A stretch of 64,000 nucleotides of DNA from Euglena gracilis (Eukaryota): the NCBI GenBank assembly GCA_039621445.1, contig CP154954.1, positions 25,494,954-25,558,953 of the forward strand, in the 5' to 3' direction. Below the pieces are notes generated by a model. The model saw only the letters and a list, made by a program, of their open reading frames with translations. It did no database searches and was not told the origin of the DNA. Numbering within the stretch: position 1 is the first letter of the stretch; each line of letters begins with the position of its first letter. The translations under genes were made by a program, and so were the position numbers. Below, piece after piece: positions 9,291 to 47,396 of this stretch.

Positions 9291-9481
9291 CTCGGTGTTT
9301 TTCATGCATCTTAGGCGGCCAATCTCGCACTTAAAACGCATTTGTGTTCCTTTGGGCAATTCGCAAAAGAACAAAAAGGTTGTTTGGTTATTTTTTCAAG
9401 GGGTTAAGGTCCAGGTTTTTGAAATTCTGTCTGTGGATTTTCGCCACTTTCCGTGGTGAACCCCAGGGGAAAGGCCAAGAC

Positions 9482-9962
9482 CAGGGGTTTTCTGAAGCCG
9501 GAGGGGACCCTATCCCGGGGGGGGGGGTCCAGCCAGCCAGCAGCTCAAATCCAGCCAGCAGCCCAAATTCGGGCTGGGAGCCCCCCCCCCCGGGGGTCGA
9601 GTGAAATAAAGTTGGTTCCAGCCTGGCCTCCGGCCGGGCCAGCCGGCCGCAGGCTGGCCAGCTAAATGGGCTGCCCAGCTCACCTATCCCTGCATTTTTT
9701 CAGTAATTAGGCTGTTCCTCCAGTCCCGATCCAGCCTTGATCTAGCTCCATCCATCAAAATGTCGAAAATGGCAAAAAAAAATTCGTAAATTTTTGTTTT
9801 TCATCGACCCAGCCCAGCCCAGCCCCCTCCAGCCCCTCCCCCCCCCCTCCCCCCCCCTTATGCCCCCCGGGGGGGTCCAGCCAGCAGCTCATTTCCAGCC
9901 AGCAGTCTTTTTGCCAGCCGGAGGCTGGACCCCCCCCCCCGGGGTCTTTAAGAAAACCCCTG
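9482..9962. mobile_element. hAT-like MITE, family E (CAGGGGTTTTCT...AGAAAACCCCTG)
   Basis: 12-bp TIR, TSD gccaagac/tgcaagac (6/8), and many internal CCAGCC repeats. A related right end is at ~21240-21328. Confidence 0.8.
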
Positions 9963-12900
9963 TGCAAGACTTGGTGTTTTTGGCCCTCTGAAAACTGCGG
10001 ACTTGGAATCCGAATACCGAATACCCCCAGGATTGACCCTGGGAAATTCACGAACTCACACAAAACCCCTCTTATCCTTCGCATCTCCTGTGTAGGTGGT
10101 GTTGTGGAGGCCTGGTGTCAGGTCCATCCCTTTGGTTGCTTTTCTGATTTTCTATAAGTGTGTCTTCTTTTGAGCAAAGGAATAATTCAAATGGCTCATT
10201 TGTTTGTGCAGGTGTCCCAAAATTGATTTTATTTGCTGAAGCTTTAACAGTGGGTCTTTCTGAGACATGAGGAGTGGAACTGCAACGTCCACAGATCGAG
10301 GTTTTTGTTCAGCATATCTGAGTTTAATATGGAAAGTGTGTCAGGGTATTGCACTATATGCCCCCCTGAACGCAGAGATTCTCAGGCAGCAAGCACATCC
10401 ATTTGCAGGCAATGTACTGCGCCTCATTTTATTACAATAGACCAGGTGAAGGATAAATCCTTGAAATGTTTTTCATTTTGATGTTTCAGGGGTAATAAAA
10501 CAGTTTTTTCACAGGCTCAATTGCCGATGCCCAAATTCAGACCCAGGAGACGGGTCTTTTGCTATATTTGATTTTCAGCAATTCAACAATGAAGAGGTAA
10601 TCACAGATCTTTTATCTGAACGGACCGTTTTGCAATTGCACAAGTGTTGTTTTGGAAAATTGTGCACAGGAGCATTCCTTTGTCAGAACACGCAAAGAAG
10701 CCAACAATTTTTTTTTAAGGCAAAATGTATGGCGGCGTGTAGGGCTCCTCCTCTATGTGTTCCAGCAACACCCCAAGTTGATGGGGTAGCCGTTGGAAGG
10801 CTCCCAAACACAATGCTGGGCATATGTGCCCTGTATGCTGTGTATGCTGTGTGGGACACCCTAATTTTCAAAATCCTTGCATTTCGTCTTTCAGTCCTGA
10901 GGCACCAGACCACATCCCGACCACATTTTACGCGTGGGTGGCATTTATTGGAACTATCAAAAAAAGTTCTTTTGCGCAATGGTGCACAGGAAGCAGCCAA
11001 CTAAACCCGCCCCTAAAATAAGACCCCCCCATAAAATGGAGCCCCCCAAAAATAAGACCCCCGCTGGCCGGTCCGAACCAAAATCCATAAAATGGACCCA
11101 CCCCCATAAATAAGACCCCCCCCTGCCGGCGCGAAGCGCCTGATTTTTGAAAAATGGGACATTTTTGGGGGGATAAATCTGTCATTTTGGGACAGTTTTC
11201 ACACAATTCAGCATATTTTACCCTATTTGTCTGGCGCGAAGCGCCGAATTTTTCGAAAATTGGTATCATGAGGGGCATTTTTGGACTTTTTTGGGGGTCG
11301 AAAAGTTTTCCAGCAAAAATCCATATTCGGACCCCCCCCCCATGACCCCCCCTCGTGCTTTCACAAAAACCGACCCATGAAATGGACCCCCGGGGGGGTT
11401 ATTGCGAGATCGGCCGCTCAGTTGGAGCACCGTATTCGACACACCTTTGCATTCTGTCTTTAACACCCCCCGTGTCAACGAAAACATGCATGCCGGAACG
11501 TTGGCATGTCCGGGACAAAGTGCAACTGAAAGCAGGGGCTCCAGTTTGGCCCAGTCCACCACTGTCAGGTTCTCTCCGGGTTTTGCCGGATGCCCAAGCC
11601 CTGTCCTGGCGCTTCCTTTCGTCTGGGGGTGGCGGCCAACCGTCGATCCCCCCAAAAGCCCGCCATTTGGCGGACGGGTGCCCCCCCCCCATCTCGCTTT
11701 CTTCGCTGCCTTCTCCGCCCGTCCTCCGCCGCTCCGACTCACCTGCGTCGCCCCCCCCCCCCCCCGTCCCGCGCCGCACACCGCAGTGGGGACAGCGAAC
11801 CGTAGGCGACGGGCAGAGAGGAGGACGCCCTGGCCGGTTCGAGGCTCCTGTGCAGGCAGCCAGTGAATCCATTGGCCCGGGACAACAATCCCGCCGACGA
11901 CCCTCCTCACCGTAAGGGAGCAAATGGCCCTCTTTTTAGAGATTCACAAAATATCACTCCGAGTTGGGTTTTTTTTATCGTATTCGGAAAAACTGCCGTT
12001 TGTGTGGCGTTTGAAAGCAAATGAGTTCTGTGAAAGATTTTTTTTATCGAAAGCCAAAAAACTTCAGTTGTGTTGTCGATACTGATATGCTGTGCAAAGT
12101 GAAATCAAACGAAGTAAAACAAAACAAATTGTTTCTTTCACATTTGAAGGAGGAGGGCACCACTGCCCTCGTGTCGCTGGTGTCCCTCGTGGGCTCCGGA
12201 CCATCCCCCCCCTTCCAATTCAAGTCGGAGTATCAAGACCATCCTCCACCGGTAGTATCCGCATCGGTTATCCAATGTGGTGGTCTTCGCAAAAGAACAA
12301 TTTCCGATAATTTTTGGAAAATTGTCCCAAAGTTTCAAAGTCAAAAAGACGCATTTAGCCGATTTTTGGGGGCAATTATTTAGGGCCAGGTTTTTGCCAA
12401 CAGTTCTACTGTGCATGTGGGTGGGTCACATGAGGAATCTCATCAGGATGGAGCCCAACACTGGACTGTTCGTTGTGAAGTTCTCCTTTCCTCTTCCCTC
12501 AAGCCAGAGTCATATTTGGCTCCGTCGCATTGTGGCCACACGTGCAAATGATCAAACCATGAATCATGTCGGGAAGGCGTTCAAAATACCTCCAAGGAGA
12601 GCCTTATTTTGGATTTATCAACTTCTGGCCAAGAAACCATCATTTCTGGGGTGTTCCCAATAACACAAGAAAACCTTTCGGTGCTTTGCACTGTTCACAA
12701 ATTGGTCTGATACGCGATTCCGTGTGATTGCTGGTCCGAAAAATTCCGAAGTATCAACGATCTCATCATCGTTGTCCTTGACAATTGGGGTTTGGGGTAT
12801 TTTGAAGCTTTTTTTTATCGCCGTGAAGCGCCGTCGGGCGGTCTTCAATTTGTTGGGGAAGGCAAATACCTTGTTCCTAATGATGAAGAGCAACGACGGA

Positions 12901-13175
12901 GAGCTATGGCACCATTAAGGACCAGAAAGCAATGCAGTATTTTATTTCCAAAATAGGAATCACACAGTCAGAAAATCGATGGAAATTGCCACTCAGATAC
13001 AGCCGCACACTCTTTTTGCACACAGAGCATGGTATCCCTCCTGGAAATGAGACAGTTCATTTTTTTTTGTTACTGTCAGGGAAGGTCTTGTTGGTCCAAT
13101 GAGATACAGGGACATTTGCAATGGCAGGAGATCTGGTGGAAATTGGTTTCAGTAAAGTGCACGTTGTTAAAAGCA

Positions 13176-13570
13176 TTTTATAACTCCCCCCCAAATAATC
13201 CCCCCCCCAAAATACTACCCTCCCTCGGGGTCCGACTTCGGCGACCGGGTTAATACCCCCCCCCAGTTTAGGGCCAAAGGCCCGGATTCTGACCTGAAAA
13301 CGTTGTTAAGGATCACAAACTCTGACAACGAATTACGAAAAAAAATCTATTTTTCTTGATCATCTGACCTCCAAAGAATGCCAAATTTAATAAGAAAGTA
13401 CAAAAATGACCCCAAAGGGGAGTTTTGGTGCTATTTTGGCTCCTACGGGACTTCGAAAATTTCGAAAGTTTTGGGGTGCTCTGACCCCCCCCCAATAATA
13501 CCTCCCTCAGGCCGGGATTTCGGGCGAAAAAAATGATACCCTAGCGGTGTATTATTTGGGGGGTTTACTC
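13176..13570 (+). mobile_element. MITE-like repeat family H
   Basis: Inverted ends CCCCCCAAATAAT / ATTATTTGGGGGG. A reverse-oriented copy is at ~50215-50525 and a fragment at ~23415-23480. Confidence 0.65.
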
Positions 13571-14992
13571 TTTGGAAAATAATCTAACTCTCCAATAGGG
13601 ATTTCAGGGGCATTCCGGTTCATCTCTCACTCAAGTTAAAGAAACTCCAATGAGAGTTTATTAATAAAAAAAATTAATAAACTCTTTTATAGTTCCTATT
13701 TTTGTTCACTATGACATCCACCATTCTGACACCATGAAACGCACTGGTCCAGCAGGGTGTATGGGGTTCTTGTTTTGTGAATTAAAGCAAAGGCGTGACA
13801 GCAGTGCCAGATTTCGAAAATCATGGAACCATTTCCCAACGATGTTCCGTGCTCCGGCAAGTTGTTTCAAACATCTATTATCGGCCATCACCTCTCAAAA
13901 TATTAGTTCTGCCCTTAAAGTTATGAGCTGGCATTTTCCGGGGTTGGCAACCTTCCATCCAAGTGGTCTCACAGCCAGGGTATTAAGTGAAGGGAGAGGG
14001 GAGAATGGGGTCAGACCCCCCAGGGTGGGTCCAGACCCCTCCTCCCCACCTGGACCCCTCTGGGGACCAGATCCCCATGAAAAATCTAAGGCGCTTTACA
14101 CCGTAGTGACGGCGTAAACTGACTTTTTGACCCGTTTTTGACACAAAATACATGGGTTTCAGGCCCAAAACAGGGAGCTGGGGGGTCGAAAATTGCTCAT
14201 CTTCGGCTCAAAAATAATTTTTACGGGTTCAGGAGGCCCAGATACATTGTTTGGGGCAAAAAAAATCGATTTTTTCGACTTTTTTTGACCCAGAAATGGC
14301 CCAAAATCCTTGGGGCCCGGGGTCGAAAACCGCTTTTCGGCTCGAAAACAGTGTTTCCCAGTCAGGCTGTATTTTAGTTGGGTGCCGACCCCACCCCAGG
14401 GACGTTTTCTCGAGATATTTTCGAAAAAATCGATTTTTTGACCGAAAATCACCTCGGTGAAATGGTCGGAAGGGGGGCGGGCCAATCCTACCCAGTTTGG
14501 GCCCCTTTGCGGCTGAATGACTCGGGCCTCGCAGGGAGTTGGGGGTCAAATGGAGGTGATTTGGAAACTCGACATCCAGTCACTCGCGACTGGAAAAAAA
14601 ATAACAGGAATGGAGTCGGGGTCATGGTGATTATCCGCCGTTCCTGAAGTCGCCTCGGGACGGGGGGTTCGACCCCCCCCTTTGCCCAGGGGTAAGCTTC
14701 GCTCTTACCCATAAAGGTATAAGAGTTCTTAGACCCCACACTTAAGTGTGGGAGCTCCACTTTGTACCATGTGTGGGCCAACGACTACCCCAATCGCTGC
14801 CTCCCACCCGACTTTGGAACTGAGAAACTCGGGGTTTCCGATGCAGTGCCTCCCAGGGGCTCTGTGTCAGCGTTGCACGTGTGTTCTGGTTGGAGTGCCC
14901 TCCCTCCTCGGTACCCGGGCGATCGTGTCTGCACATGTGGCTCGCCGGACACAAGGTGCGACCCCCTCCGGGGCCCCAACCCAGCCCTAACC

Positions 14993-15385
14993 CAGGGTTC
15001 GATATAAGGAGGGCGTACATGGTTTAGGTGGGGGGGGTGTCCCCCCCCCCCTCCTGGCCCGCAGGGGGGGTCCGGACCACCCCCCCCCCCACCTGCAAGG
15101 GGGGTCCGGACCGACCCTGGGGGGGGTACTCGGGACCCCCCCCAAAAAGGGTCAATTTTTTCCTCCGGCGCTTCGCGCCGAAATTTTTTTGCATTTTTGG
15201 CCAATTTTTGCCCAAAAAGTGCCCAAAATGGCACTTTTGGTCGATTTGGGGGGTCAAAAATTTTCGGTCACCCTGACCGCACCACTGTTTAGGTGGGGGG
15301 GGGGGTCCCCCCCCCCCCCCCCCCTCCTGGCCCACAGGGGGGGGTCCGGACCACCCCCCCCCTCCTCTCCTTATATCGAACCCTG
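14993..15385. mobile_element. hAT-like MITE, family A (TIR CAGGGTTCGATATAAGGA)
   Basis: Perfect TIR of at least 18 bp and perfect 8-bp TSD CCCTAACC (14985-14992, 15386-15393). Contains a GGCGCTTCGCGCC hairpin. Confidence 0.9.
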
Positions 15386-18297: not shown

Positions 18298-18598
18298 CAG
18301 GCTGTTTTTTTTAAGGTGGTGCCGACCCCACCCCGGGGGGGGGGGGGGGTGCCTGCTTGGGCAGGTACTCCAAGGCACAAAAATCCGACCCATTTGGAGG
18401 GGGGGGGGTAGGGCACACGGCCAAAAGTGCCCTAGCACAACCCTGGCGCCGGGAAGCCCAAAATGGCCTATTTTCAAAGGAATGTGCCTGGGCACAGGCC
18501 GAAATCCAACCCCCGGGGGGGGGGGGGGGTAGTGCCTGCCTGGGCAGGCACTCATAGGCACTCCGGACCCCCCGGGGTTGTTAAAAAAAAAAGGCCTG
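18298..18598. mobile_element. hAT-like MITE, family B (CAGGCTGTTTTTT...AAAAAGGCCTG)
   Basis: Imperfect TIR with a perfect 8-bp TSD TTCGGAGG on both sides. Related pieces lie at ~7410-7485 and 14363-14400. Confidence 0.85.
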
Positions 18599-21500
18599 TT
18601 CGGAGGTTTGGCCATATTTTTGCCTTGGCAGTTCAAAGGGCTGAAAATTTTCGCTCCCCAAAATCAGCTCAAAAATGCCAATTTGAACATTTCCGGAGCA
18701 AAAATTTGTCAAATATGCCAACAATTTCTGGCACAAAGTGTCGAAAGAACCCCCCCAAGTTTGCGGATTTTTTAAACCCCTGATGACCGACCCCCCAGTC
18801 GGAGGACACCTTTTTGGTCAGAGCCCTGTGTCCAACGACCCCCCCAGGACAGAAGGCAGAGATAACCGGTCGTTGGAGGGGGTACCGTGTCTTGGACAAT
18901 GGGGGGGAGCAGTTGGCAGGCAGAAACGCAGGCGCGAGCCAGCAGAGTTTATGGAGCACATGGTTTTTAGAATGGCCGCAAGAAAGGGGGTTCTTCAGAA
19001 AGGGGGTTTACTGGACGGAGAAGGTGATCGCCGTGAGGCCGCAGGTGTTCGGCGGCGGGAAGCGGACTGGGCCTCCCCATGTCTCCCAGTGCTCTCACCT
19101 GTCTGGGTTTCCCGGCCGGACGAAGCCATCCCGCCTCCGTCCGTTCCTGCCGTGTCGGCCCAGGGGGTCGGGACCCCCGAACGGCCGACCCCGTCCACCG
19201 CTGTTCGGCAAACCTCGGCCCCAGTCCCCCCCCCGAACCCCCGTCCCCGTCGCGCACTGCGCCTCCCCCCCTCCTTGCAAGTCAAGGCTGGCCCCATCGC
19301 GGGTCCGATCGTCCCCAGAGCCGGGCGCGGCCGCCTGTAGAACCCCGGGGGCTGGCCGTCCCCTCCCCAGGCGGGGTGGGCTGCCCGGGGGAGGCATTGG
19401 CACCTCCCGGCCCACGGGACCCGCCAGCCCAGATAGCGGAGCCAACTCAACCCCGCCCAACTGTCGGCGGACCTCAAACCGACGCTGCTGCGGGGAACCC
19501 ACGCCCAAGGGGCTACTGAACGTCAAGGAAGGTATCAAGGGAAAGAATCAACCAAATGAAAGACCAGGCGCAGTGCCGTTTTTTTCCAGTTGAGGTGTGT
19601 TTGCTTTTTGATCATTGCTTCAAGGGACATGCATGTTTCCTTCAGGGTGTGCCTGCCCCTCCTTTTGGAACCAGGCAATCAATCCCTCAGTCATTGGCCG
19701 ACCCCACCTCACCACCCAACCCAAGTGGTGATTGGTTTCTTCAGATTGACTGACTGTTTTTTGTTCTAAACCCCCCTCCCTCCCTGCCCGAATGCACCGG
19801 AATTTTGAGGAGGGGGTATTTTCTTCATATTTTGCAGTCAGATTTCCGTGTATCGCAGAGTTTCCGACCCCAGGGACTTCAGATTGATGGGTTTTTCAGA
19901 AAGAGTGACTCGCTGCTTTTTGGAAGTGTGGAAGTACCACTGGAACAAAACGTTTTCGTTGGCCACTCAGTCTAACATTAAGCACCCAATCAGTAATTGC
20001 AATGAAATCCAAATGTAAGCTACCCTTTGCTGAAATCCAGCATACTGGGGACACCCTTTTTCTTTCCCTGTTGAATTCCAGGCCATCAAATTGGGACTGC
20101 AAGACACCCCTGCATGACAAACACTGCGTTTGGGGGATTTTTGAATGAGGAACGCACGGAGGAAGGGCATTTCATTTGGTTTTTCGACTTGTGGATGGTG
20201 CAGGTGGGCAAATCAGGTCCCATCTGCTGGGTTGGACAAGACCGTGTCCGATACCCCTTTCCAGGCGACCAGTGTCCCCCAAAAAGCGATCTTTGCTTAT
20301 TCCCGGAAGGGTCACCTGTTTTATCAAACCGGTAGAGAAGGAATGGAAGGGTTTTGCGCATTTTGTAGGAGCTCCAAAGGAACCGAACATTTTCAATTTT
20401 CGAGCGCGATGGTCGGAAGTCACACCAAACACCAAGCGGCAAGTGGTGGGTGGGTCCCATCGCCTCTCGGAAAAACGTTGGACACCCTTTGGAAGTGGCC
20501 CGCCATCATTTAGCCGCCCCAATTTGACTGACCCTCGCAAACTCCGGGGTGTCCTTCTTTGAGGAAGACTTCGACTGGCCAACTCCATCAGCCGACCGCC
20601 GACGATGGCAACTTGTTGTGCCTACTGTGGAAAGGGGTGGCTGAAATGGGTCCCCGGTTTTTGTTGGCCCCCCCCTCGAGGACACAAAGCGAGGGGTTGC
20701 AGGTTTCTCATTGTTCAGGGACAACAAGGCAGCTCAGCTGCCAGAACCCTCACTTATCCTTGGCAATGCACAGGCACCAATGGCTCCCCCGTTCATGTTC
20801 CGCCGGTTCTCCGGTGCTCTACCCCCGTTCGCTCTTCTCATCCTCCCAGCGCCACGCCATCCCATCCCCCACCGACTGATCCCTACCGTCCAGCTGCCCA
20901 GCTCCGTGAGTACAATGGATGGCCCAAGGGAGGTCTCTGGCCCAACCTTGGTTGGCGGTAGCCTCATGATTTGGATGGGGTGGGGGGCACGGGTTTTCTG
21001 AAGCTGGAGGAGACCATGCCACAGGGGGCAGGGGGGGGGGGCAGCCACACCAACCACACAAGGTGAGTGTATGTCCCTACAGCGCTGGAATTACACCAGA
21101 GTTGCTCACCCGGCCAGGCAGAGTAACAAAAGAGCACTGGTGTCAGGGGTACCTGGCCACTCACCACACAGCAAACTGGGCCAGAAGCGAAGTTAGCGCC
21201 ATAAACAGACAAGAAGACTTAGTGCAACGAAGGGGGGGGGGGGCAGCCAGCCAGAACATGCTTTCCAGCCAGCACCTTCCAGCCGGCCCATGGAACGAAC
21301 CCCTTTGACCCATTTAAGAAAACCCCTGGTGAGGGAGTTGCAGACACTGCAGAGCGCAGGGCGAGAAAGTGGGATGGTTCCGCTTTCCCATGGACTGGTC
21401 ATTCTTTTTTTGGTACACGTGGAGGTGTGACGCAGGTTTGCCCCCCCATACAAAACATGCAAAATGTGCCCCCCCAAGGTCGGGCCTTTCAAGCCTGTAC

Positions 21501-24500
21501 CTTTGTGGTCGACCGACCTCAGCTGGCAGAGGCCATTTGGCTCCTCCCAAAGACACTCACACCTGAGGGGGGCTTCTTCCCGGTTTACTTTCTAGTTTAC
21601 GAGCTTCTTTCATCAGCCTTGGTTCCTCAAAATTCAGGTATTGCCTTTAACTGGCGATCTCGGCCCCATCCGGGTTTTTTGAGGTTGGACCCCCGGGAGC
21701 AGGGTGTGTGGGTCAGCCAGCCCCCTCCTCTCCCCCCCAGTGTGTGTTTGTCCCGCCAGAGGCAGGGCCTTGGCCGGTTTTGGGGGGGGGGGGGCTTTCT
21801 ATCTTCGTGAAGCGACAAAATAAATCTGTCCTGAAATTGACCCGGTACCCCGGTCCCCCCAGGAGGATAGAGGTCATATATCAAGAATGACTGGTTTTTG
21901 GCTAGCACCCATAGGGCTCCAGACCCCTATGGGTGGTGGGTGGGGGGGTCGACCACCCCCCACCCCCACTCTGGTGGTAGGGGGGGGGGGGGGGTGACCG
22001 CCCCCCCCAGGCCTTCCCATATTTTCAGAGGTGCCAATTTTTGGTCAAAATTTGAGCGGGTGCCATGATGGGTAGGGGGGTTCGACCCACCCCTCTACCC
22101 CCCACGAGGCCTTTCTGTCCAGCCCTGGGAATGATTGAAAGTGGCCAACTGGCTCCGAAGGCATCGGAAATTTTTTGTGGTTTTTTCCAAAATCTATTGA
22201 TTTTTTCGGCCATTTTTGGGCGAGTGGCCAGAGTGACCGACCCCTCCCCCGGGTGCGGGGGAGGAGGTGGGTGACTGGTTTCCAAAAAAGTGACTGACTT
22301 GAAAGTGGAAAGTGACCAATGAAATGGTAGGGTCCCCCCCTTGGTAGGTGGGGACCCCCCCTCCCGGGGTCTGAAAAAATTCCCTGCCCCCATGCTTTTT
22401 TGCCTTTTTTTACGCTAATCCCACCGAAACCTTTGCTTATGTCAATTTGGATCACCCCAATATGGTTGCCCCCCCCCCAACTTTACATTTCATTGTGGCC
22501 CCGGCCAAGCACCCCGAGAGAGGTGACTCAACAACACAGGGTCCCGGATGTGGCAATCGCAGGATGGCGGGGGTTGGGGGAACTGGGTGGCTAAGGCAGC
22601 AACCCTTCTCATTGTGTTCCCAAACGCCTCCGATGGACCGCCAACCAAGTCGCCCAGAATTTGCACTGGTCCCTTCCTTGCACAACTTTTCACCTGCACC
22701 GCACTCGCTCGGCCGATTCACAGCCCACGCTGAGTTTTACGGTGTGGCCTTAAGAATTAAACCCTCCGGGGGGGGGGGTGCCTGACAGAACTCAGACCCC
22801 CCAGGGAGGTGGTTTCGGGCACCTGGCCAAGTGAGTGCACACAGGCACTCTTGGTAAGCCGAAGGCACCTGAAGGCCTGAAATGGTCCATTTTGGGGCAA
22901 ATTTCTGCCCACCATCAGACAGGCATTTCAGGGCACTCCGAGACCTTTGTCCCTTCAGAGCTGGTAAAGTTCAGCCTGGCACGGACATCCCACGCACACG
23001 CTACGCAACCGCACACTCGCATTCGCAAGAACACACCCCGCGCATATCGGTACTTTGCTGCTCGCCTTCCTTTTGTGATGCGGCTCACCAACAGAGCACC
23101 ACCAGCATCAGAACGAGGGGGCAATGGCCTTGTTGTTCGTAAATGGCAGGGCGGAAGTCTCCCCTTTTTGGGTGCATTTCTGTGTGTACCTTTTTTTTGT
23201 CAACCAAAGCCAGCGGCACGCGATGCCCCTCCTTTTTTGTTGAAAGTCATATGCCGGCCCCTTCCAAAAGATTCCTGCTAAATTGTGTTCGAGGTATTTA
23301 CCTCCCCCCCCCCCGGACGCTTGCCCCCCCCCCTCAAGATGGCTTTCGGCCTTAATTTGTGATACTGTGTGTGCCCCCTCAGCAAACCCGTTCCCAGAGC
23401 CACCCACCTTCTGCTTAACCCCCCAAATATAACCCCAGGGGGTCCGACTTTGGGATCCGACCTATAACCCCCCCCCAGACAACACCAGGGGCAAGCCTTT
23501 CTTAAGCATACGCAGTATCGCTTGGGGGGGGGTGGATTGTAGCCAGCCCGGATTTTGTGGGAATCTTAGTGGCCCCCCCGGGGGGGGAGGTTCGCTAGCA
23601 GGGCTAGCTAGTGGAAAATTCTTTTGCAATGACCAGCGGAAAAGGCAAAAAAAATTGGGACCCCATAAATGGCTTTTAAAAAAAGCCCATTTTTGGGCAT
23701 TTTGGGTTTTTTTGAAGAAAATCAGCCAAAAACCACATTAAAAACCTCATTTCCACTTCACTTTTTAAGGCGAGGGGGAACAGCATTTTTAATGCATTTC
23801 CCGGCGCGCAGTACCAGAAGAAATTTTCGCTGTTTTTTATTTTTGCCCCAAAATCCCAAAAATATTTCCGAGCTACAACCCCCCCCAAAAAATATGATCC
23901 CTCGGAGCCCTGGACTTCAGGTGTGAAAATAGCACCCCGGATGGTCGTAATTAGGGGGGGGGGGCTTACTTCCATCTTTTTTTCACCAAAATCCAAAAGA
24001 TGTTGTGGAGCTTTTGAAAGAAAACAATATAAATAAATATATGTTATTATTATTGTTTATAATATATTGAGAGATTTTTTTTTGAAGAAGGCAAAAATCC
24101 AGCCAGCCAGCATCAGCCAGCCAACCATCCATCCCTGACCTTCCCCCCTTGCCCAAGAGATGGAAATGTTCTAATGTCCTAATGTGCCATTGACACAGCG
24201 GCTGTGCCGCGTACCGGCTGGCCAACGTCGCCGTATTTCAGTGCAAAAAAACAACATCGGGAAATGTTCCGTTGACATGGGGCGTGCTGTGGGCCAAGTG
24301 GATGCAGCCCCCCCCCTTGGGGTCAAAAATGGGTGACTGGTTCTCTTTTGAAAATCAAAATTGACCCCCCGAGGTGAGAGGTTCTGGGGACATTGAAAGC
24401 CTCCCTCCTTGTCCAGGCAAAATGGCTCAAAATGAACGAATTTTGTGTATTTTCAAAAAATCGGCCTTTTTGGAACAGATGGGCCATTTTAACTGACTCC

Positions 24501-24647
24501 TGGACGACCCCCCCCCCAGGGGGTTGGGCCAAAAGCCAGTCAACGACCCCCCCCCCAAAGCCAGTCAACGACCCCCCCCAAAAAAAACAAAAGGCGAGCC
24601 ACCATTAAACGATATGGTATGACCCAGAAACACCTGCAATAGCTCAC

Positions 24648-27499: not shown

Positions 27500-28201
27500 C
27501 AGGGTTCGATATAAGGAGGGTGTACAGGGTTAAGGTGGGGGGTGTCCCCACCCCCCTCCCTCCTTCAAGGCTGGAGGGGGGCCCATACCCCCCCCCACCT
27601 GCCAAGGGGGGTCCAGACTGACTCGGGGGGGGGGGTACCCGGGATCCCCCCCAAAAAGGTCAAAATTTTCCTTCCGGCACGCCGGAAAATTTGTTGCATT
27701 TTTTGACAAATTTTTGCCCAAGAAGTGCCCAAAATGACGTTTTTGGATGTTTTGGGGGGTCAAAAAAAGTTCGGCCTGGAACTTTGTGCCGGGTCGAAAA
27801 TCAGTCACCCAGACCACGCCACTGATTAGGTGAGGAGGGATGCCCCCCACCCCCCCCCTCCTGGACCGCAGGGGGGGGGTGGTCCGACCCCCCACTTGCC
27901 CTGAGGGGGGGGGGGTCCGACCACCCCCACCCCCCCCCCGCAGGTCCAGACTTCCACCTGACCGAAGGGGTCGTCCAGACCCCCTGGGACCAGAAAATTT
28001 AATCTGGCGCTTCACTCCAGAAAAGATGACAGTTTTGGTGTAAGTTTCGGCCATTTTTTTCAAAATTGCTCACAAACGAAATTTTCGGGCCTTTTTCAAG
28101 TTTAAAAAGTTTTCTGGCACAAAGCGCCAGCAATTTTTGCACAGACGAGGGGGAGTCCAGACCCCACCCCCCGCTCCCCGCTCATTTAATTCCTATCCCT
28201 G
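27500..28201. mobile_element. Family A MITE copy (right end degenerate)
   Basis: Starts CAGGGTTCGATATAAGGAGGG, and the interior resembles 14993-15385. Confidence 0.7.
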
Positions 28202-29611
28202 GGGGTCAGGTCAGCCCACCCCAGCCAGAAGCAGGGTTAACTAGGAAAACTAAATGATTTTTTCCCCATTTTGGATGGTTTTGGGAAGGATGAGTGAATA
28301 AGTGGAAATATGCACCGTGCAGTTTTTGCAGTTTTTTTGCAGTTTTCACGTTTTGGGTTTTTTGCCGTTTTTTGCAGTTTTTTTTTGCAGCTTTTTTTTC
28401 TATAAAAAAATGCATACGTGCAGTTTTTTGCAGTTTTTTTTTGATTCCGGTTTTGAGGAAACCTGAGGTGCTGGATTATTGGGTTGAAGTTGGAGTTGAG
28501 GATTTCGAAATTCGTGGTGCCGCAAAGGAGCACAAGCTCTTGAAGAAGATTGGGTCTTGCCCCAAGCATTGTGGCCAAATGTCACACACGCCAAATGCTT
28601 CAAAGAGCAAGAAGTTCTTTCTTATTTGCAAGAACTTCCCAGGTTGTAGACCATTTGGCAATCCCCTAAGGACAGTGTTCAAAGTTTGCGGTGGTTGTTG
28701 TATATTTTTTTTCATCGTGATATGGAGAAACTTCACCAGGTGATGGATCGAAAGTTCCACATCCCCTGCAAGAAATGAAAGCATTGAAAATTTCTGTGTA
28801 TTTCTGTGTATGCATTTTTCCCATATTTAAAAAGGAAACCGTTTGGCATCTTTGTGGGCATGGTCGGTACAAGTTTTGGTGCAGGAAAACCAGTGTCCCG
28901 GCATCGAAACACATGATTTGCATTTCACTGCATGAAGAACCATGCAGAGTGCACCTTGATTGGTTGCTTCCATTTTTGTCGTCATCAGTTCCAAAGCTGC
29001 GCAAAGAAAAGTTAGGTGAATTGGGGTGTGCTTATGTGGTCGCAATTTACGTTGTTTTGCATATGCAGACCATTTCAGCTTGTTTATTGTTATTATTTGT
29101 TGAAGTGCAGTTTTTTTGCAGTTTTTTGCAGTTTTTTTTGCAGTTTTTTGCGATGCAGTTTTTGACCGGCCCGTGTGCAGTTTCTCCCCCCCCCCTGCCA
29201 TCATTCTGGAAAAGAAAGAGCACCAGCGCTGACCCCCGCCCAAGGTCGTCAAACAGCTGGTTTTTAGCAGGGTGGTCCCCAGTCTCCAGCCACCACCGGG
29301 ACCTCAGAATCCCTCACCCCACACTCTCTCTCCACTCTCGACGTGCCTGGTGCCAGTTCAACGAATCAGAAGCCTCCTTCCCCGCCCTGGAGGGTCGAGT
29401 GGCGCGGTGGACTCGTTGACCCCTCCTGCTCAGCAGTGCCTCTGCCTGTGTCCCTGTCAGATGGGCGATTGCTGTAACGCCGGTGGTGGGTTTCCTTCCC
29501 CGCGCCACCCGGCAACGCCACTGACAACAAGTGTCTTGCACCCGCATTGCGTACGCCACTGATCAGGAAAGAGGTCGGAGAACACAGTCCCGGTGCAAAA
29601 TGGGACAGGGG

Positions 29612-29911
29612 CAGGGGTTTTTTTCAGTCTTGGACCCCCTCCCCCGGGGGGGAGGGGGGGGTAGGGGGGGTGGGTCCCTTGGACCCCCCTCCCCCGGGGG
29701 GGGGGGGGTAGGGGCTGGTGGGTATATCTTTTTCGGCGCCGAAGGCGCCGAAAATTTTGAAAAAGGTGCTATTTTTAGCATTTTCGGGCAAAAGTGGTGG
29801 GTCCCCCGGGACCCCCCCCCTCCCCCGGGGGGGGCCCCACCCCAGGGGGGGGGTGGGTGGGTGCCGCCCCCCTCCCCCCCGCCCCCCCCCCCAGTTTTAA
29901 AAAAGCCCCTG
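29612..29911. mobile_element. hAT-like MITE, family C (CAGGGGTTTTTT...AAAAGCCCCTG)
   Basis: 8-bp TSD GACAGGGG on both sides and an internal palindrome TTTTCGGCGCCGAAGGCGCCGAAAA. Confidence 0.9.
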
Positions 29912-30749
29912 GACAGGGGTTCGATGGAAGGAGGGTGTCACAGCTTCAGGTGGGAGATTCTTGGTGTCGACCGCTGGGAAGCGCCAGCCGAAAATCGGTC
30001 ATTTTGGCCACTCCAATGTGTAGGTGGCTGGGGGGTGGGTGGGTGGGTGGGGGGGGTGTTTCCTCACCCCCCTTGACTGAAAAAAAAAATTGACTGAAGG
30101 AGGGGTCTGCCCCCCACCTGCCTTTATATTGCACCCTGGGATGGGACCATCCCACGCTGGGACCATACCATATTGTTTGTTGGTAGTGTGTCACACTGCT
30201 GGGAGATTGCCCTGTTTTTCAAGAAAGTTATTGGGTTTTGGACCTCATTGGGGCCAATGACGAAGCGTGGCCAACCGGGCACCGAAGGCGTCAAAAAAAT
30301 TTTGAATTTTGAAGAAATGGTGAACTGGTGAAAGCCGGTGCATTTTGACCCATATTGGGCGAACCGATTGCACAAGTTTCCAAAAAGAAACTGGCCTTGG
30401 CTTAGGGTTCAAGATATCGATTTTTCCAAAATACCTCGAAACCTATTGGTTTGGTTTGGTTTATTAGCTCTTGGAAGGCACACGTCTGCTTGCTCTGGTG
30501 AGCAGCAATGTTTGTGGCACAAATGATGAAACATTGGAGATTTGGGAGCATGGGGGAAAAGTGACTGGAGTGGCAAGGGTTGCGGACCCCATTTGGGGGG
30601 GGGGGTCGGAAGTGGGTCACCGGTTTGATGACTCGATGTTTTTTGAAACAGAAACTGGGCCTCGGTAAGCAGTCATATACACTCACTGGATTTTTTCAAA
30701 AAGTTTTGGGTTTGCATATTTTTTCCCCCACTCAGTCACGCAGAGCATG

Positions 30750-32000: not shown

Positions 32001-32047
<47 letters not shown>
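32001..32047 (+). repeat. (GT)n microsatellite
   Basis: Direct inspection. Confidence 0.97.
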
Positions 32048-32048
<1 letters not shown>

Positions 32049-35500: not shown

Positions 35501-35545
35501 CAATTTCCCGACCAACCCTTTCTCTCACTATTTGAACCTCCCAAG

Positions 35546-35623
35546 CAGGGGTTTTTTTTAGTCTTGGACCCCCTCCCCCGGGGGGGGGGGGGGGGGTGGG
35601 TGGGTTCCTTCGACCCCTTCCGC

Positions 35624-35656
<33 letters not shown>

Positions 35657-35844
35657 CTTTTTCGGCGCCTTTGGCGCCGAAAATTTTGAAAACGGTGCTA
35701 TTTTTGGCATTTTTGGCCGTTTTCAGGCAAAAGTGGGTGGGTCCCCCGGGACCCCCCCCCTCCCCCAGAGGGGCCCCACCCCAGGGGGTGGGTGGGTGGG
35801 TGGGTGCCAACCCCCTCCCCCCCCAGTCTTAAAAAAAACCCCTG
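35546..35844. mobile_element. hAT-like MITE, family C
   Basis: Collinear with 29612-29911; perfect 8-bp TSD CTCCCAAG. Confidence 0.9.
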
Positions 35845-37590: not shown

Positions 37591-37607
37591 CACTGAGTGG
37601 TATATCA

Positions 37608-39369: not shown

Positions 39370-40268
39370 ATTATTTATATAATATATTTATTAGTATTTA
39401 TATTAATATTAATATCAATATTAATATTAATATTAATATCAATATTAATATTAATATTAATATTAGCATTAACATTTATGTCAATATTCACATTCATATT
39501 CACATTCATATACTTAATAATATGATATCCATATTCATATGAATATGAATATGAATATGAATATGTATATTAATATCAATATTCATATTCATTTCAACAT
39601 GAATATGAATATGAATATGAATATGTATTTCTGTATTAATATAAATCTTAACATGAATATGAATATAAATCATAATATTAATACGAATATTAATATTGAT
39701 ATTCATATTAATATTGATATTAATATTAATGAAGAGGAAGAGGAAGATGAAGAGGAAGAGGAAGAGGCACGGAAGAGGAGGAGGAAGCTGCGAGAGAAGA
39801 GGAAGATGAAGAGCAAGAGGTATAGAGGAAGAGGAGAGGAGAGAGAGAGGAAGACTACGAGTAATGGGAGAGGAAGGTTAAGATTAAGAGTAAGAGGAAG
39901 ATGTGAAGAGGAAGAGGAAGAGAAAGAGGAACGAGAAGAGGAAGAGGCAAAGTGAATAGGCAGAAGGGAAGCGAGAGGGGAAGAAGAGTAGGAGGAAGAG
40001 AATAGGCAAGAAGGGGAGAATCGAGACGAAGAGGAAGAGGGAAGAGCAAGAAGAAGAGGAAGAGGAAGAGGAAGAGAAAAAAAAAGAAGAGGAATATTAT
40101 TAGTATTATTATATTGATATTAATATTAATATTAGTATCAATATTATATTAATATTAATATTAATTTAATATTAATATTAATATTAATATTAATATTAAT
40201 ATTAATATAATTATTGATATCAATAATAATATTAATATTAATATCAATATTAATATTAATATCAATAT
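39370..40268 (+). repeat. Compound low-complexity block: (ATTAAT/ATGAAT)n, (GAAGAG)n, (ATTAAT)n
   Basis: Direct inspection. Confidence 0.95.
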
Positions 40269-41919
40269 TGTGTGAAGGTCAGGAGGCTTTGAAAACAAGG
40301 TGACAAAACATGGAGGGAGAGGATCTCCTGAAGGTGGGTGAGCAGCTTCCCGATAACGGTACACGTCCACTGGCACCAATTTTAGGATCCCAACGGCCTT
40401 GCCACTGGCCTGCGGCCTGGGCTCCGCTGTTGCAGCCACATCAGCTGTTGATGCTTCAGCACCCACCAGACCGGCATTCACCTCCCCGGTGCAACAACAC
40501 CCAGTTTTAGCGGCCACGTTATACCCCGCAACCGGGGCGTGAGACTGGGGGGACGACGTGGTGCCAGTGCATCGCAACCGGCAGCCGGAGAAAGGTAGCC
40601 CTGAAGCCCTGAAGCACCCGTTATTTTGGGTGCAAGGAATTGTTGAACCTTTACCCCTCGTTTGGTTGTATGAAAGCGGTGGGACTCACTCCCCTCAAAT
40701 TATGCACAAAGCTTGGTGTGTTTTACGCTTTTCAAAGGAAAAATGGTGGAGAATAACCAGAAAACGGACTCCGGTCCGACACATGCCGGGTATTTCAAGT
40801 GCCAATTTTTGTCTTCTTGTAACGCATTACTGTTGCAGAAAGGGTGTTCCAACAGTCACAGGTCCTTGCACGTCATCAATTCATTACGCGTATCTGCCAA
40901 ACAGGTGAGGCCAAAACAGCCGGCCTTATGGGCCGGGGAACAGCAGTGCAAATGTATACACGTAAGCCAGGCAATTTTTAGCCAGTCAGAGCGTTCCAGT
41001 GAACAGTAAACAGAATCTCTCACCACAAATTTTATCACCACGTATTCGTTGTGCGAATCAATGGTTGGCGTGAGGAATTGTGTTTGCCAGCCGTCATGGA
41101 CGAGGAGATAGTATCGCACAGCTGACATGTGTTGGTGCGCGCATTTGCGCGCACCAACACAATGTGTTTGTGTGCGCTATGGCTCCTACAAACACATTAT
41201 TTTGAAGTGAATTATTAAATGTTGGTGCGCGCATTTGCGCAAATGCGCAAACAAGTGTTATTGTGTTTATTTGCGCAAATGCGCGCACCAACACGTCTAT
41301 CGCATTCAAAAACCTCGTAGAATCATCGTCCTCATCAGTGTGCTTTAACACAGACATGTTGTTCGTTGCCTCCCATTGTACAAAACCATCCACATGTCAG
41401 TTTCCCCAAGATGTTGGTTTGCGCATTTGCGCGCACCAACAAATTGTGTTTGTGCGTGCATTTGCGCCCACAAACGTGTATTTTTTCTTTCTATAATGTT
41501 TTCTATAATGTTGTGCATTTATTTGCGCCTACCAACACACATCAGTTCCGTGATGGCTGGCTGACGTAGTCTGCAGTATGTGATGTAAGAAGGCTCTGTG
41601 TGTTCTTACAGGCGGCTGCAGAACCAAAGCCAGTTCCTTCACCACGTCAGCACCAGTTCCAAGTGTCGTAACAGCCGGTGTGTGTTTCCCATCTGTTTGA
41701 TGTACAAGAGCACCAATCACACCCTCCATCCTCTTTGCATCAGTCGCTGAGCAACATGCGTACCAAACCACCTGGAGTCACATCCCCTCAACAATGGGGT
41801 GCAATAGTTCATAAGCTGTCTTGCGTGTGTCAGGGTGCAGGGTCCCAGAAATTGCGTAAAATTTGCGCATTTGCGCAAATGCGCACATTTCAAAGAAAAA
41901 CCCGCGAATCCGGCCGCCT

Positions 41920-42459
41920 AATTATTAATATGAATGTTAATATTAATATTAATATGAATAATAATATTAATATTAATATGAATATTAATATTAATATGAA
42001 TATGAATAATAATATTTATAATAATATCAATATCAATATCAATATTAATTTTAATATTCATATTATTAATAATAATATTATTAATATTAATATTAATATT
42101 AATATTAATATTAATATTAATATTAATATTTATATTAATATCAATATTAATATTAATTAAATATGAACATGAATATTTATATCAATATTCAATTTAATAT
42201 TAGCATTAATATTAATATTAATATTAATATTGATATATATATTATATATATATATATATTATATATATACTAAATATTGTTGTTTTTCTCGGTTTTTTTT
42301 TTTTTTAACCCGAGACTCAGGGTTAAAGTTTGTTTGAAAACGGCCATGTCATTCTTATAAATCAGACGCAATGGCTCAATCCCCAGAGAGAATGGGAGGG
42401 GCAGTGGTTTTCACTTTCTGGAACACGCACTCACACACACGCACAGACACACTCACACT

Positions 42460-42494
<35 letters not shown>

Positions 42495-42538
42495 AGAGAG
42501 ACGCACAGACACAGACAGACACACACACATGTGCACAG

Positions 42539-42569
<31 letters not shown>

Positions 42570-42790
42570 CGGACGGACAGACAGATGGACAGACAGACGG
42601 AGAGACAGACACAGACAAGCACACACAGACACGCACATAAACACAGATAGGCACACACACAGCCAGACACACACGCTTACACACTCAATACACACACACA
42701 ACACAACACACACACACACACAACACAACACAATACACACAACACAACACAAAATACACGCACAACACCCACACACACGCGCGCGCGCGC
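41920..42790 (+). repeat. (ATTAAT)n tract (41920-42275) and degenerate (CA)n tract (42425-42790)
   Basis: Direct inspection. Confidence 0.95.
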
Positions 42791-44399
42791 ATTTCAAAGA
42801 CCCCAGCCCCTAAGGCCCTCTTGCAGGTCTGCCTGCCCCACCTTCCTCCCCGTCTCCGGCAGGGTGCTGGGGCTCCGCATTGCGGGGCAACCGTCCATTG
42901 CCTCAGGTGTGGGGGGAAGGGGCCCCTTGAGTGATTGAGTTGCCGGGCTCGGCAGTGGAGGACAGGCGGGGAAGGCCGCAAACTGCATTGAGGGCCAATC
43001 AAGGCGTGGTCTTTTTCCTTTGTGGCATATGAATATGAAATGAATTTGGGGTTCGTTAGCGGGCTGGGGGTAGCGTGCACAGGGTTTAAAATGGACTGCA
43101 ATGTATTGGATTGGTGGTGAGAGAAAATCTGGACGTTTTGGCTTAGGGTGGTGTGCTAAGGGGGGCCCCAAACACGTTTTTGCACGTTTTTTAAGATTTT
43201 TTTAAAAAAAATTGTCATTTTTTTGCTTTCCTTTGGTTTTTCCCCATCGCTGCTCAAAAAAATGTTTTTGATTTTGAGAAATGCTTTTTTTTTTTGGACC
43301 CAATTTTCCCTCAGACCGGACTTTTTGTCAATGATTGTCATTTGACCTTTTTGGGGGGGCCCAACAAATTGTATTTTTTTAGAATCAGTTCTCAGAATTG
43401 CAACGTTCATTTGCACTTCTTTTCCACAACCCCCAAAAAAGGCAATAAATCAAATTACTTGTTTTTTTTCTTAGTTTTTTTTTTCTGTGGTTTTTGTGGG
43501 TTTTTTTGCCATCTCTTTGTGGTTTTTGGGGGTTTTGCTTCCCATTTTTTGATAGTCCATGTTGGGAAGGAAGGAGGAAAACATGCAAACGAGTTTTTTT
43601 TTCCATGTTTGTGGTTTTTTTTAGTTTTTGGCAAATTCTCAGTTTTCGAGTTTTCAGGACAGGACTCCAGATGGACATAACCTTAGAATTGCGCACAATT
43701 TTCAAGAAAATTATTTGTTTGATTTTCATGTTTTTTTGACATCCAAATGGAAAGATATTTCCAATCCCTTATGTCCCTTATGTCAAGGAATCGACCATGC
43801 GAAGTTCCAGAAAAAAACTGCTGACGCCAACGAAACGTGCCTTTTTACCTTTCCCCCCGTTGTCCTTGACACGGCTGGTCTATGACACCCCCCCCTCCCT
43901 GCCAACCGCATTTTTCTGGCACCCAAAATGCCATTTTCTTTATGGCACAGTGCACATGACACGGCGTGTCCATGACACCCCCCCCCGTGTGAGCCGCACT
44001 TTCCCCGTATTTCGGCGGGTCAAGGACGGGGGTGGAAGGCACACATTTTTCTGGAATAGAAGGCCCGAAAATGGTGTCGATCCCGCCTTGGCTTTGGTGA
44101 GACCGTCACAACTTTTTTTTTCACCCCTCTTCCCCCATCGAACCGTGTGGCGCGCCACCTCGTTTTCCAGGTTGACCCATCAGGAATCGCATTGGTTCCC
44201 ATCCTGCGGCCAAGGTGCATCCAGTCCAAGGTTGGCATGTCGTTGGAAGGGCTGGGGCTTTGTTGTCCCCAAAATTGATCCCAAAAAGTTGGTCCCCCCC
44301 TTCCACCCCCCTACTTGGTTAAATGAAATCCCAGAATATTTTTTAGATTTTTCAGGCAATTAACACCCCGGCCGAAAAACTAAGTGTTTTAACGTCAAG

Positions 44400-46620
44400 C
44401 CATTTTAAAGAAGAAAGTTTGGTGTGCAGGTGGGCAACTCGAAACGGTTCTGGCTGCATCGTGGCGGTGGGAGTGGATTGCCAGAGTTGCGCCGGAACGG
44501 AAATGGACCACCTGGCAAATGTCCCCAACTTCTGCTGGGGGGTTGTCCCCCTTGCAGCCGCAGCAGCAAATCTCAGGGATCGGTGGGAAACTTTCAGCAA
44601 AGTTGGATTCGGAACTCCGCCTGTCATCTGGTTTGGCCAGACAGTTCAAGACTGATCAGTCACCCCACAAACCCCCCGTTAGAAGGGAGGGGGGAGCCCC
44701 CCCCCCTCCCTGTCCTGTGGGTCACCCCGAACCTCCGCCCCACCGCCCTCCGCATTTTCCAGAGCTTGCATTTTCCGGCCATATTCCTCCGTCAGTTCCG
44801 AAAGAATGTTTCTTTCCAAAACGCCATGGGGAGTGAGTGGGGAGGGGGGGGGAGTTGCTCTGTCCCTCTGTCCACAACCACCAGCCAGGTGCTGGTGGTT
44901 GTGGAAGAAGTTGATGTCTTTGTTTTGGCGAATGGCGCTTTGAAATCTCTCTCTTCTGAATCAGCGTTGCTGGGGAAACTCTTGGGGGGGGGGGGGCTCC
45001 TTGCCGACCCGAGAGTGTGTGCTTTTGGGGGAAGTGTGTTGTCAGTGGGTGTGGTGCGCGTGTGTTGTCAGTCTGTATTGCGGTTCCGCCCCAGGCTGGC
45101 AGGCAGGACATCGTCAGGGGTGACGACTTAGATATCGACTGAGAAATACCGCACCAGCTTAGAAATCTCCCCCCCCCCAGCGGTCCAATCCCAGGGCTGC
45201 CAGAGAAACTGGGGGTGCCTGGGACGTGAACTTGGGGTGCGTGGGGAGGGTGTTGTTGCTGGATCAGCAAATTCTTGGCAAGCATTCAAACATTCGGGGT
45301 GCCAGCATTTCATCCGTCCAATGCCGAAGACCGGTTGGGATGCTAGAAAGAGAGGTTGGTGGACATTGGCCCAGGAATCCAGTCTGCCTAGACATTCTGC
45401 GCCCCATCCCACCTGGGTCTCATAGTGTGTCCTCCCTTGCCCACTTGAAGCAAACCAAACATTTGCAATGGGAATGTATGTGCATCAATTGTCTGGTTGT
45501 TGTTTCTGAGATAAATTATGTTTCCAAGGTCGAGTCTCTCTTATACAACTCGTTTTGTGGCCACAGCTCTGTCACCCATTTGGTCATTGATAGTATTTCC
45601 TGGAAAATTCGACATTTTTAGTTTCTGGGCTTTGTCACATTTTTCAAACAAGTTTCAAGGATTACCGCCTTGTCTAAGACACACCGTGCCGTTGACACAC
45701 ACTCCGTGTGAACGGCACTTTTCTGGGCAACAGTGGCGTTGGCGCGCCGTGTCATTGACGCACTGCCTGTGTCAACGACAAATTCCCTGAACTTTTGCAT
45801 GTCTTGGACAGGGGGGAACTCAAATTGAAGGTGAAAGCTTTTAAATAAACGCTGTCCAAGTGGTGTAATTGAATGCTTTTGGGTGCTTATGGGTGCCCTT
45901 CATTCACGGCCTTGTCCGAAAACTTGCAAAATCCACATGTTTATGGATCTCAACTCGAGTAGAGTCAATATCTTAGTTTGATGCACTGTTGAATGAAAAA
46001 TGTTGTGAGCAGAGTGGGATAAAACGGAGGAGGAAAGAAATGTGAAAATGAATTAAATTGAAAAGGTCCATATTTTCCGCATTGAGATTATGTGAATAAA
46101 GAATAATAAAAAAATGGCAATGTCACACCTGTCCTGCCAAAACGGACACCTCACAAAACGTAAAACCTGCAGAAAATTCATCAGGAAATCAAAATGTTTT
46201 TCGAATGTGAACAGGACTGAGCGAGAAGTTTTTTTTAACCATTGAATCACTGTGTTTGTCTTTTTATTGCCAAGCCTTGATCTTGTGGGGCAATAAAGAC
46301 AGGAAATGAACATCTTTGACAACAAAGGACGCGTTTTGGAGGATGCAGATTCCATGATTTACAAAAGGAATGTAATGAAACAGGCACTGTGCTGTTTTTG
46401 TCTTGCAATGCGAACCCAGAAAAGGGTCATAGTCGGTTTAGTTGTGGATGCTGATGGCAATGGCAGTACAATATGAGTGACTACAATTTCTTGGGCTCTG
46501 GGTTTGGGTTTGTATCTGGGGTCCTTCAAATTTCGGTGCTGCTTCCTTGTGTATTCCATTGCACGTTCTGGGACGGTGGTGGATAAAGGACAGCGGAGAC
46601 ATTCATTTCTGCGCTTCATT
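44400..46620 (-). pseudogene. Decayed non-LTR retrotransposon (LINE-type RT) relic
   Basis: Broken minus-strand frames show degenerate RT-like motifs in the expected order: NLKDPRYKP (cf. DPxNYRPI), a GVR..Q-like segment, and LFLASQPVFGIG (cf. LYxPxxxGGLG). Recognised by eye only. Confidence 0.4.
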
Positions 46621-46907
46621 GTGCTCCCTGGGTGGGGATGGAGGGACAAAGACACAACTCACTCCCACCCGCTCATTTGCGACCCACTCCCGCCGCACCG
46701 TTTGCCCGACGCCATTCGCTGACTGCAGCCAATGGCCGTCCGCCACCCCCCTCCCCAGTGAGGTCTGCCGGCGTCCGTTGCAACACAACCGCCAGGGCGG
46801 GTTTTGATTGTCGGGCTTTCCATCCAGTACAGGCCACGCGCCACCCGAACTGTTCCTTGGGCCGCACTACTGGCCGCGGGATGTGTCTCGAAGAAAATCC
46901 CCCCGGC

Positions 46908-47315
46908 CAGGCTTTTGCTTAAGGGATTGCAGTACCCCCCAGGGGGGGGGGGGGGCTGGATCGCAGCTAGTCCAAATTTGGCTAGTGGGATTTCTAGCAG
47001 ACCCCCGGGGGAGTCTGGGGGGGGGTCTGCTAGCAGGGCTAGCTAGTGGGAAATTTTTTTTCCAGTGACCGGCGCGAAGCGCCGAAATTTTTTTTTTGGG
47101 ACCCCCCAAAATGGCCAAAAATGCCCGTTTTTGGCTATTTTGGGGAATTTTTGGAACAAAAACAGCCAAAAACCTATTAAAACCCTCATTTTTAAGACCT
47201 AGCTAGAGCCCCCTCCCCCCCCGGGGGGAGGGGGGTCTAGCTAGTCCACTTTTTCCAGTGTCTAGCCGATTGGCTAGCCAGTACCCCCCCCCGGGGGTCC
47301 TTAAGCAAAAGCCTG
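46908..47315. mobile_element. hAT-like MITE, family D (TIR CAGGCTTTTGCTTAAGG)
   Basis: 17-bp perfect TIR and perfect 8-bp TSD CCCCCGGC. Internal GCTAG repeats and a GGCGCGAAGCGCC hairpin. A diverged copy starts at ~23492. Confidence 0.92.
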
Positions 47316-47396
47316 CCCCCGGCGAACAATGAACAGTGAATAGTTGCGGGGTCGTGTTTGGTGAGTGTTGCTGTAGCACAGCCTGTCATGAGCAGG

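Follow-up and report, generated by a model that had tools for sequence, protein, structure and literature searches.

Nonconventional introns of euglenids follow a published splice code, 5'-N3CDG...CHGN5-6|R, and knock-in experiments have shown that the lengths of the 3-nt and 5-nt spacers matter for their splicing (PMC12501133). An origin of these introns from MITEs (miniature transposable elements with inverted repeats) has been proposed since 2014 and is still treated as a hypothesis (PMC3935182, PMC4770533, PMC6221363, PMC11282704, PMC11170887, PMC12621601 and the Discussion of PMC12501133). According to the 2014 report, euglenid genomes had at that time yielded no identified transposable element (PMC3935182), and the 2025 splice-code paper describes the origins as ones that "remain unclear" (PMC12501133). 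Here we analyze a 64,000-nucleotide stretch of the Euglena gracilis genome (contig CP154954.1, positions 25,494,954 to 25,558,953; hereafter the window), which contains short elements with CAG...CTG ends and 8-bp target-site duplications (TSDs). These are probably non-autonomous cut-and-paste MITEs of six families, free-standing counterparts of the elements that turn into nonconventional introns on landing in exons. The elements themselves are ordinary MITEs, and their value is that they make the question of intron origin countable: if the shared ends and the equality of TSD length and spacer sum hold, the MITE-origin hypothesis could be assessed by counting TSD logos, empty sites, and exonic versus intergenic copies. 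Our literature search found no paper that relates the 3 + 5 spacers to an 8-bp TSD or describes Euglena MITE families that are free-standing and have such ends, although subscription journals or supplements may hold one.

Five elements have perfect 8-bp direct repeats that abut terminal inverted repeats (TIRs) starting with CAG and ending with CTG, as seen both by reading the sequence and in a computational scan. Using the numbering of the whole window, and with no strand assigned to the elements, these are located at 14993..15385 (family 2, 393 bp; TIR of 21 bases with 2 mismatches allowed, CAGGGTTCGATATAAGG; TSD CCCTAACC), 18298..18598 (family 3, 301 bp; TIR of 15 bases, CAGGCTGTTTTTTTT; TSD TTCGGAGG), 29612..29911 (family 4, 300 bp; TSD GACAGGGG), 35546..35844 (family 4, 299 bp; TSD CTCCCAAG) and 46908..47315 (family 5, 408 bp; TIR of 17 bases, CAGGCTTTTGCTTAAGG; TSD CCCCCGGC). 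Their TIRs are 15–21 bases long with at most 2 mismatches. Another element at 9482..9962 (family 1, 481 bp; TIR CAGGGGTTTTCT) is flanked by GCCAAGAC (9474-9481) and TGCAAGAC (9963-9970), so that the six together extend from the first left TSD to the last right TSD over 9474-47323. A first-pass annotation of this DNA had listed the same six TSDs with correct coordinates and sequences, yet it quoted only the left copy for the element at 9482, where the two copies agree at just 6/8 positions. Its claim of at least five MITE families with these ends and 8-bp TSDs holds: pairwise BLAST places the elements at 29612 and 35546 in one family (80.4% identity over 312 columns) and separates the other four, giving five families among the six elements, and there is a sixth family besides.

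Additional copies were located by BLAST searches with whole elements and with 45-nt termini, followed by reading of the sequence. Four of them have both ends and TSD copies that match at 6/8 or better. A second copy of family 1 lies at 20988..21328 (341 bp), with its left end mutated to CAC and a TSD of GTGGGGGG / GTGAGGGA (6/8). An element at 29914..30138 resembles family 2 at its termini only and has flanks AAATGGGA (29598-29605) and GGATGGGA (30139-30146) that match at 6/8; the family 4 element at 29612-29911 sits exactly in its terminus (nesting at 29604-29919), and the TSD GACAGGGG of the inner element consists of GA plus the first six bases of the outer one, CAGGGG. The element at 57662..57784 (123 bp; TIR of 11 bases; TSD GCTGGGAG / GCCGGGAG, 7/8) represents family 6, which was outside the first-pass list, and a further copy of family 4 at 63616..63850 (235 bp) has a left end mutated to AAG and a TSD of CGGGGGGT / AGGGGGGT (7/8). 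The ten elements thus have a TSD of fixed 8-bp length, with five perfect pairs, two matching at 7/8 and three at 6/8. TIRs of 11–21 bp with at most 2 mismatches were found in seven elements, the sizes of the MITEs range from 123 to 481 bp, and the Pfam scan of their open reading frames (ORFs) indicates no coding capacity. Each family has two to four diverged copies or fragments within the 64 kb, with flanks and TSDs that differ from copy to copy, and the six sequence families together account for no fewer than twelve copies or fragments in the window.

These structures are not expected by chance. A strict scan, which required CAG...CTG ends, TIRs of at least 10 bases with no more than 2 mismatches and 8-bp TSD copies that are identical, found 5 in the window, as compared with a mean of 0.0 and a maximum of 0 in 30 dinucleotide-shuffled versions. 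Allowing one TSD mismatch gave 6 against a shuffle mean of 0.2, and allowing two gave 12 against 3.5 expected, which is too noisy on its own, so candidates in that tier need other support. For ends already defined by family similarity, flanks that agree at 6/8 positions would arise by chance with a probability of about 0.005 by our own binomial estimate at p=0.26, a value that was not produced by a tool. When exact repeats flush with CAG-starting TIRs were counted by length, they occurred at length 8 only (five elements), with 0 at 5, 6, 7, 9 or 10. A scan open to any terminal triplet was swamped by a TATTAA satellite and added no non-CAG family among the matches listed.

The link to nonconventional introns lies in the geometry of the TSD. 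The two spacers of the published code, N3 and N5, add up to 8. If the RNA loses an element that has CAG...CTG ends, together with one copy of its 8-bp TSD split 5|3, exactly the published arrangement results. TSD position 6 then becomes both the first base of the intron and the first base of the downstream exon, as the first-pass annotation had proposed. With this split, N3-CDG...CHG-N5-6 followed by a purine is found in 10/10 elements on the + strand, and in 7/10 also on the - strand. Like the introns described in PMC3935182, PMC4770533 and PMC12501133, the elements would carry CAG...CTG at +4..+6 and -8..-6, have inverted repeats through which the ends can pair, offer 3-nt and 5-nt spacers equal in sum to the 8-bp TSD, and place a purine at the would-be downstream exon +1. 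RNA folds predicted with N3 and N5 attached pair CAG at +4..+6 with CTG at -8..-6 in both of the two elements folded (z-scores of -5.25 for 35546 and -3.79 for 57662). If the TSD reading is true, the two intron junctions share a consensus because identical TSD positions are duplicated at both of them; the purine reported at intron +1 in 51/55 introns would need no separate cause, being the duplicate, from the same position 6, of the exon +1 purine seen in 55/55 (PMC4770533).

One published intron shows the predicted arrangement directly. Intron 4 of gapC, present in Euglena agilis ACOI 323 alone and recently gained, reads GTCCC|aac...gtccc|AAC (PMC4770533 supplement), which is an 8-nt direct repeat, GTCCCAAC, split exactly 5|3. 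Older introns in the tables of that paper retain partial repeats only, for example intron 5 of hsp90 in strain PR (ACCGC|aac...tccgc|AAG). The authors suggested break repair as the source of the eight-nucleotide repeats in gapC intron 4 (PMC4770533), and the 8-bp repeats in the window could likewise be read as footprints of double-strand-break repair or of microhomology-mediated capture. We regard this as very improbable for the window, where the repeats of all six families have the one length of 8 and directly adjoin conserved inverted-repeat ends, families comprise several diverged copies at unrelated sites, and none of the 30 shuffles produced such a structure.

The first-pass annotation had further described the insertion sites by the pattern nnCnnRnn. 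This is true of the six TSDs that it listed, which are the same set that suggested the pattern. When six 8-mers were drawn at random from the window (200,000 draws), 0.83% of the draws had a position with an invariant base, 0.17% had in addition a second position occupied by purines only or by pyrimidines only, and 0.16% had a mirror-symmetric pyrimidine...purine pair, so such a pattern is improbable for that set. The four further elements (20988, 29914, 57662 and 63616) form a small independent set, in which position 3 reads G, A, T/C and G, so that a clean C occurs in 0/4 (6/10 overall), while position 6 is a purine in 4/4. A strict C at position 3 is therefore not general, and the case for nnCnnRnn as a whole is weak. 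The purine at position 6 is present in all ten elements on the + strand, with a probability of 7.5e-4 at the purine content of the window (48.7%), or about 0.012 after correction for 16 tests. Counting half-sites in both orientations gives 17/20 (p=0.0013, with the discovery set included).

Base composition describes the sites more firmly. The GC content of the TSDs is 71% versus 52% for the window, and a run of at least three G or C is present in 8/10 of them versus 25.7% of window 8-mers (p=5e-4). Purines occupy positions 5–7 in 8, 10 and 9 of the ten, and pyrimidines occupy positions 2 and 3 in 7 each. The preference for GC-rich sites with G or C runs is thus a sturdier bias than nnCnnRnn. 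There is a real prospect, if short of an even one, that nnCnnRnn is a small-sample accident on this compositional bias, with insertions going to GC-rich G/C-run sites, many of them within other copies of these repeats, and no position-specific recognition at all. The failure of position 3 and the frequency of G/C runs agree with such an accident, as do the G found at both positions 5 and 6 in 4/4 of the new elements and the nested or repeat-embedded sites at 29612 and 63616; it sits poorly with the scan-corrected chance of 0.17–0.83% for the six original TSDs and with the purine at position 6 in every element, even after correction. As an observation in its own right, many insertion sites are built of the same C/G runs that form subterminal palindromes inside the elements. 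Such palindromes, of C-then-G runs (CCCCC GGGGGGG), lie just inside the TIRs of every family, for example at 9505-9530, 15030-15050 and 29636-29660.

To compare the window with real introns, we took the putative TSD of published introns as the upstream exon positions -5..-1 plus the downstream exon positions +1..+3, at ten independent E. agilis positions whose values were read by eye from the supplement of PMC4770533; with n=10 on either side, the Fisher tests rest on tiny samples, and the introns are from E. agilis. The two sets agree at position 6, where a purine is found in 10/10 introns and 10/10 elements (p=1.0), and do not differ significantly for C at position 3 (3/10 versus 6/10, p=0.37). 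A pyrimidine at position 5, which corresponds to upstream exon -1 and intron -1, is found in 9/10 introns versus 2/10 elements (p=0.0055), and A at position 7, the would-be exon +2, in 8/10 versus 3/10 (p=0.07). The window TSDs thus lack the consensus pyrimidine at -1 and A at +2, and the exonic logo is not merely the logo of free copies, given the difference at position 5.

Several results weigh against the reading of the window elements as free-standing precursors of introns. Positions 5 and 7 of their TSDs disagree with the junction consensus of the introns, as just described. The TSD sample is n=10, with five of the pairs imperfect, and the purine at the position-6 half-site, when the independent set is counted in both orientations, drops to 5/8 (p=0.36), which is not significant. 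Neither of two 17-nt end motifs of E. agilis introns has a match in the window, even with 3 mismatches allowed. The window elements are known from DNA alone, while the published introns lie in exons and are spliced. What the E. agilis intron-end motifs and the window ends have in common is only a short CAGGGGTTTTTT-type start.

The purine at the junction is a separate question, as the first-pass annotation had suggested that it could simply be the target preference of a transposase. This is not supported, because base changes in knock-ins impair splicing and because TSD position 5 disagrees with the introns. When the first base of the acceptor exon was altered at one fixed site, splicing took place with A-to-G and with A-to-T, and the transcript was unstable with A-to-C; a second intron was spliced only with G or A, and G-to-T and G-to-C yielded no transcript, while a change of the last base of the donor exon was without effect (PMC12501133). 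The junction purine of real introns is at least partly a requirement of splicing, to which a target preference would add without replacing it. We found no genome-wide junction lists in the supplements of PMC12501133.

A functional need for the acceptor purine, as in those knock-ins, also brings in selection as a source of the purine at position 6: the copies could lie in a long transcription unit on the + strand, in which only spliceable copies were kept. The strand asymmetry of the sites points this way, with the position-6 purine at 10/10 on the + strand versus the mirror pyrimidine at position 3 at 7/10, as does the orientation of the copies. Three families have three copies each that all face the same way on the + strand (14993, 27500 and 48297; 29612, 35546 and 63616; 46908, 23524-23752 and 63163-63307), for which the chance is about 0.016, and T exceeds A in 15/16 of the 4-kb bins of the window. 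Co-orientation and T excess may reflect one direction of transcription or strand-specific retention. We nevertheless consider selection an improbable explanation, since the window has no coding signal (0 Pfam matches in 509 ORFs), removal of the elements leaves no protein-like frame across the junctions, and the pyrimidine at position 5 that is so strong in real introns occurs in just 2/10 elements. The longest frame that removal creates, 315 aa on the - strand across the junction at 57662, was rejected as an exon; its halves resemble GC-rich noise, its composition is not protein-like, and it has no Pfam match.

Returning to our preferred reading, that the window elements are the free-standing form of elements that become introns, a MITE that landed in an exon would turn into a nonconventional intron. 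An RNA-level activity would measure from the paired stem, 3 nt upstream of its CAG and 5 nt downstream of its CTG, and removal of the element with exactly one TSD copy would restore the pre-insertion message. The insertion sites in the window are GC-rich and dense in G/C runs; their 5' half leans to pyrimidines and their 3' half is rich in purines, and the purine at position 6 is part of this wider pattern. A bolder and more tentative idea, which we think unlikely, is that the splice code mirrors, at the level of RNA, a single type of transposon and that the element is "born spliceable". Transposase preference for a pyrimidine-leaning 5' half and a position-6 purine would then supply the purine needed for excision in either orientation, with transposon and splicing co-adapted. 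If this were true, the RNA circle released by excision would contain a single intact TSD, located between CTG and CAG.

All six families are probably moved by a single type of transposase, with staggered cuts of 8 bp, since all have TSDs of that length. Transposons of the hAT superfamily have 8-bp TSDs, short TIRs beginning with CAG, and a target consensus in which positions 2 and 7 are T and A, respectively. The window elements are like hAT MITEs in TSD length and in their short CAG-starting TIRs. Unlike hAT, they have T at position 2 in 3/10 and A at position 7 in 3/10 of their TSDs, two of the families end in CAGGC rather than CAGGG, and no hAT transposase or dimerization domain was found among the ORFs of the window.

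Merlin transposons are the only published DNA transposons of Euglena with this TSD length in the literature that we searched: two E. gracilis families have 8-bp TSDs, the TSD of the superfamily being 8–9 bp, and Merlin TIRs in general end in 5'-GG-3' (PMC8101967). The window termini differ in reading CAGG, with GG at bases 3-4, a comparison made with the general Merlin description in that paper, and no DDE_Tnp_IS1595 domain was found among the window ORFs. The introners of Micromonas, Aureococcus and dinoflagellates are also similar in being short non-autonomous transposons with TIRs and TSDs, for which the element and one TSD copy can be removed from RNA (PMC11282704). Unlike the elements described here, they have TSDs of 3–5 bp versus 8 bp and are excised by the spliceosome through a splice site in the element or TSD, whereas the code matched in the window belongs to a non-GT-AG pathway.

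No recognizable gene was found in the window. Pfam searches gave 0 matches among the 209 ORFs that are 110 aa or longer and 0 in 300 further ORFs of 65–109 aa (of 395 in that range, 91 were dropped for low entropy and 4 were not sent). There were 0 matches to Rfam at the gathering threshold and 0 tRNAs in the window, and no transposase was identified among the Pfam-scanned ORFs. Because no transposase is encoded in the window, mobilization of the elements would be in trans. In-silico removal of the ten elements with the 5|3 split gave no convincing reading frame across any junction, and as far as can be told the window elements are non-exonic copies.

All families share a plan at their termini, with CAGG(G/C) followed by a T-rich stretch, often AAG(G), and then C and G runs, and have terminal inverted repeats of 11–25 bp. 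Excluded from the TSD counts were the elements at 48297 (flanks of 3/8) and 50817 (ambiguous register), the copy at 27500 (a single end) and the orphan end at 7485. The truncated family 2 copy at 27500..27880 is 74% identical to the element at 14993 over 390 columns and has an intact left end, with left flank GGGGGGGG, and a lost right end. A family 2-like element at 48297..48664 (368 bp) has degenerate flanks, TGGCGAGG / GATGCAGG. The orphan family 3-like terminus at 7470..7485 on the - strand matches at 16/16, and neither a partner end nor a TSD could be convincingly assigned to it. Internal fragments of family 5 are located at 23524..23752 (72% identity over 249 columns) and at 63163..63307, with a family 5-like right end near 63944.

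The largest of these elements is the family 6-like one at 50817..53653 (2,837 bp), which groups with 57662-57784 by its similar inverted ends (TIR matching at 23/25). Its flanks, CCCCCCGG / CCTCCGGC, match at 5/8, or at 7/8 with a one-base shift; in the shifted register the left flank and the TSD of the element at 46908 are one identical 8-mer, CCCCCGGC. The 2,837-bp element was considered as an autonomous copy and rejected, as its 33 ORFs with a length of 70 aa or more include no transposase-like one; it also has no Pfam match.

Long microsatellites, (GTAT)118, (TG)165 and (TGTA)74, together with a 35/69/104-bp GC-rich tandem repeat (5498-5968, 48867-49195, 61647-61943 and 62273-62497), account for the longest spurious ORFs. 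Blocks of a TATTAA/AATATT satellite at 39389-40269 and 41923-42249 are inverted around an AT-rich core (GC of 0.42 in 40–44 kb), and a GAAGAG array is located at 39731-40076. A pair of 18-nt inverted repeats (TTTGCGCAAATGCGCAAA) at 41234-41879 has near-identical 8-mers adjoining (TGCGCGCA / TGCGCACA), and a related motif, GCGCAAATGC, is found in a tandem repeat at 895-991.

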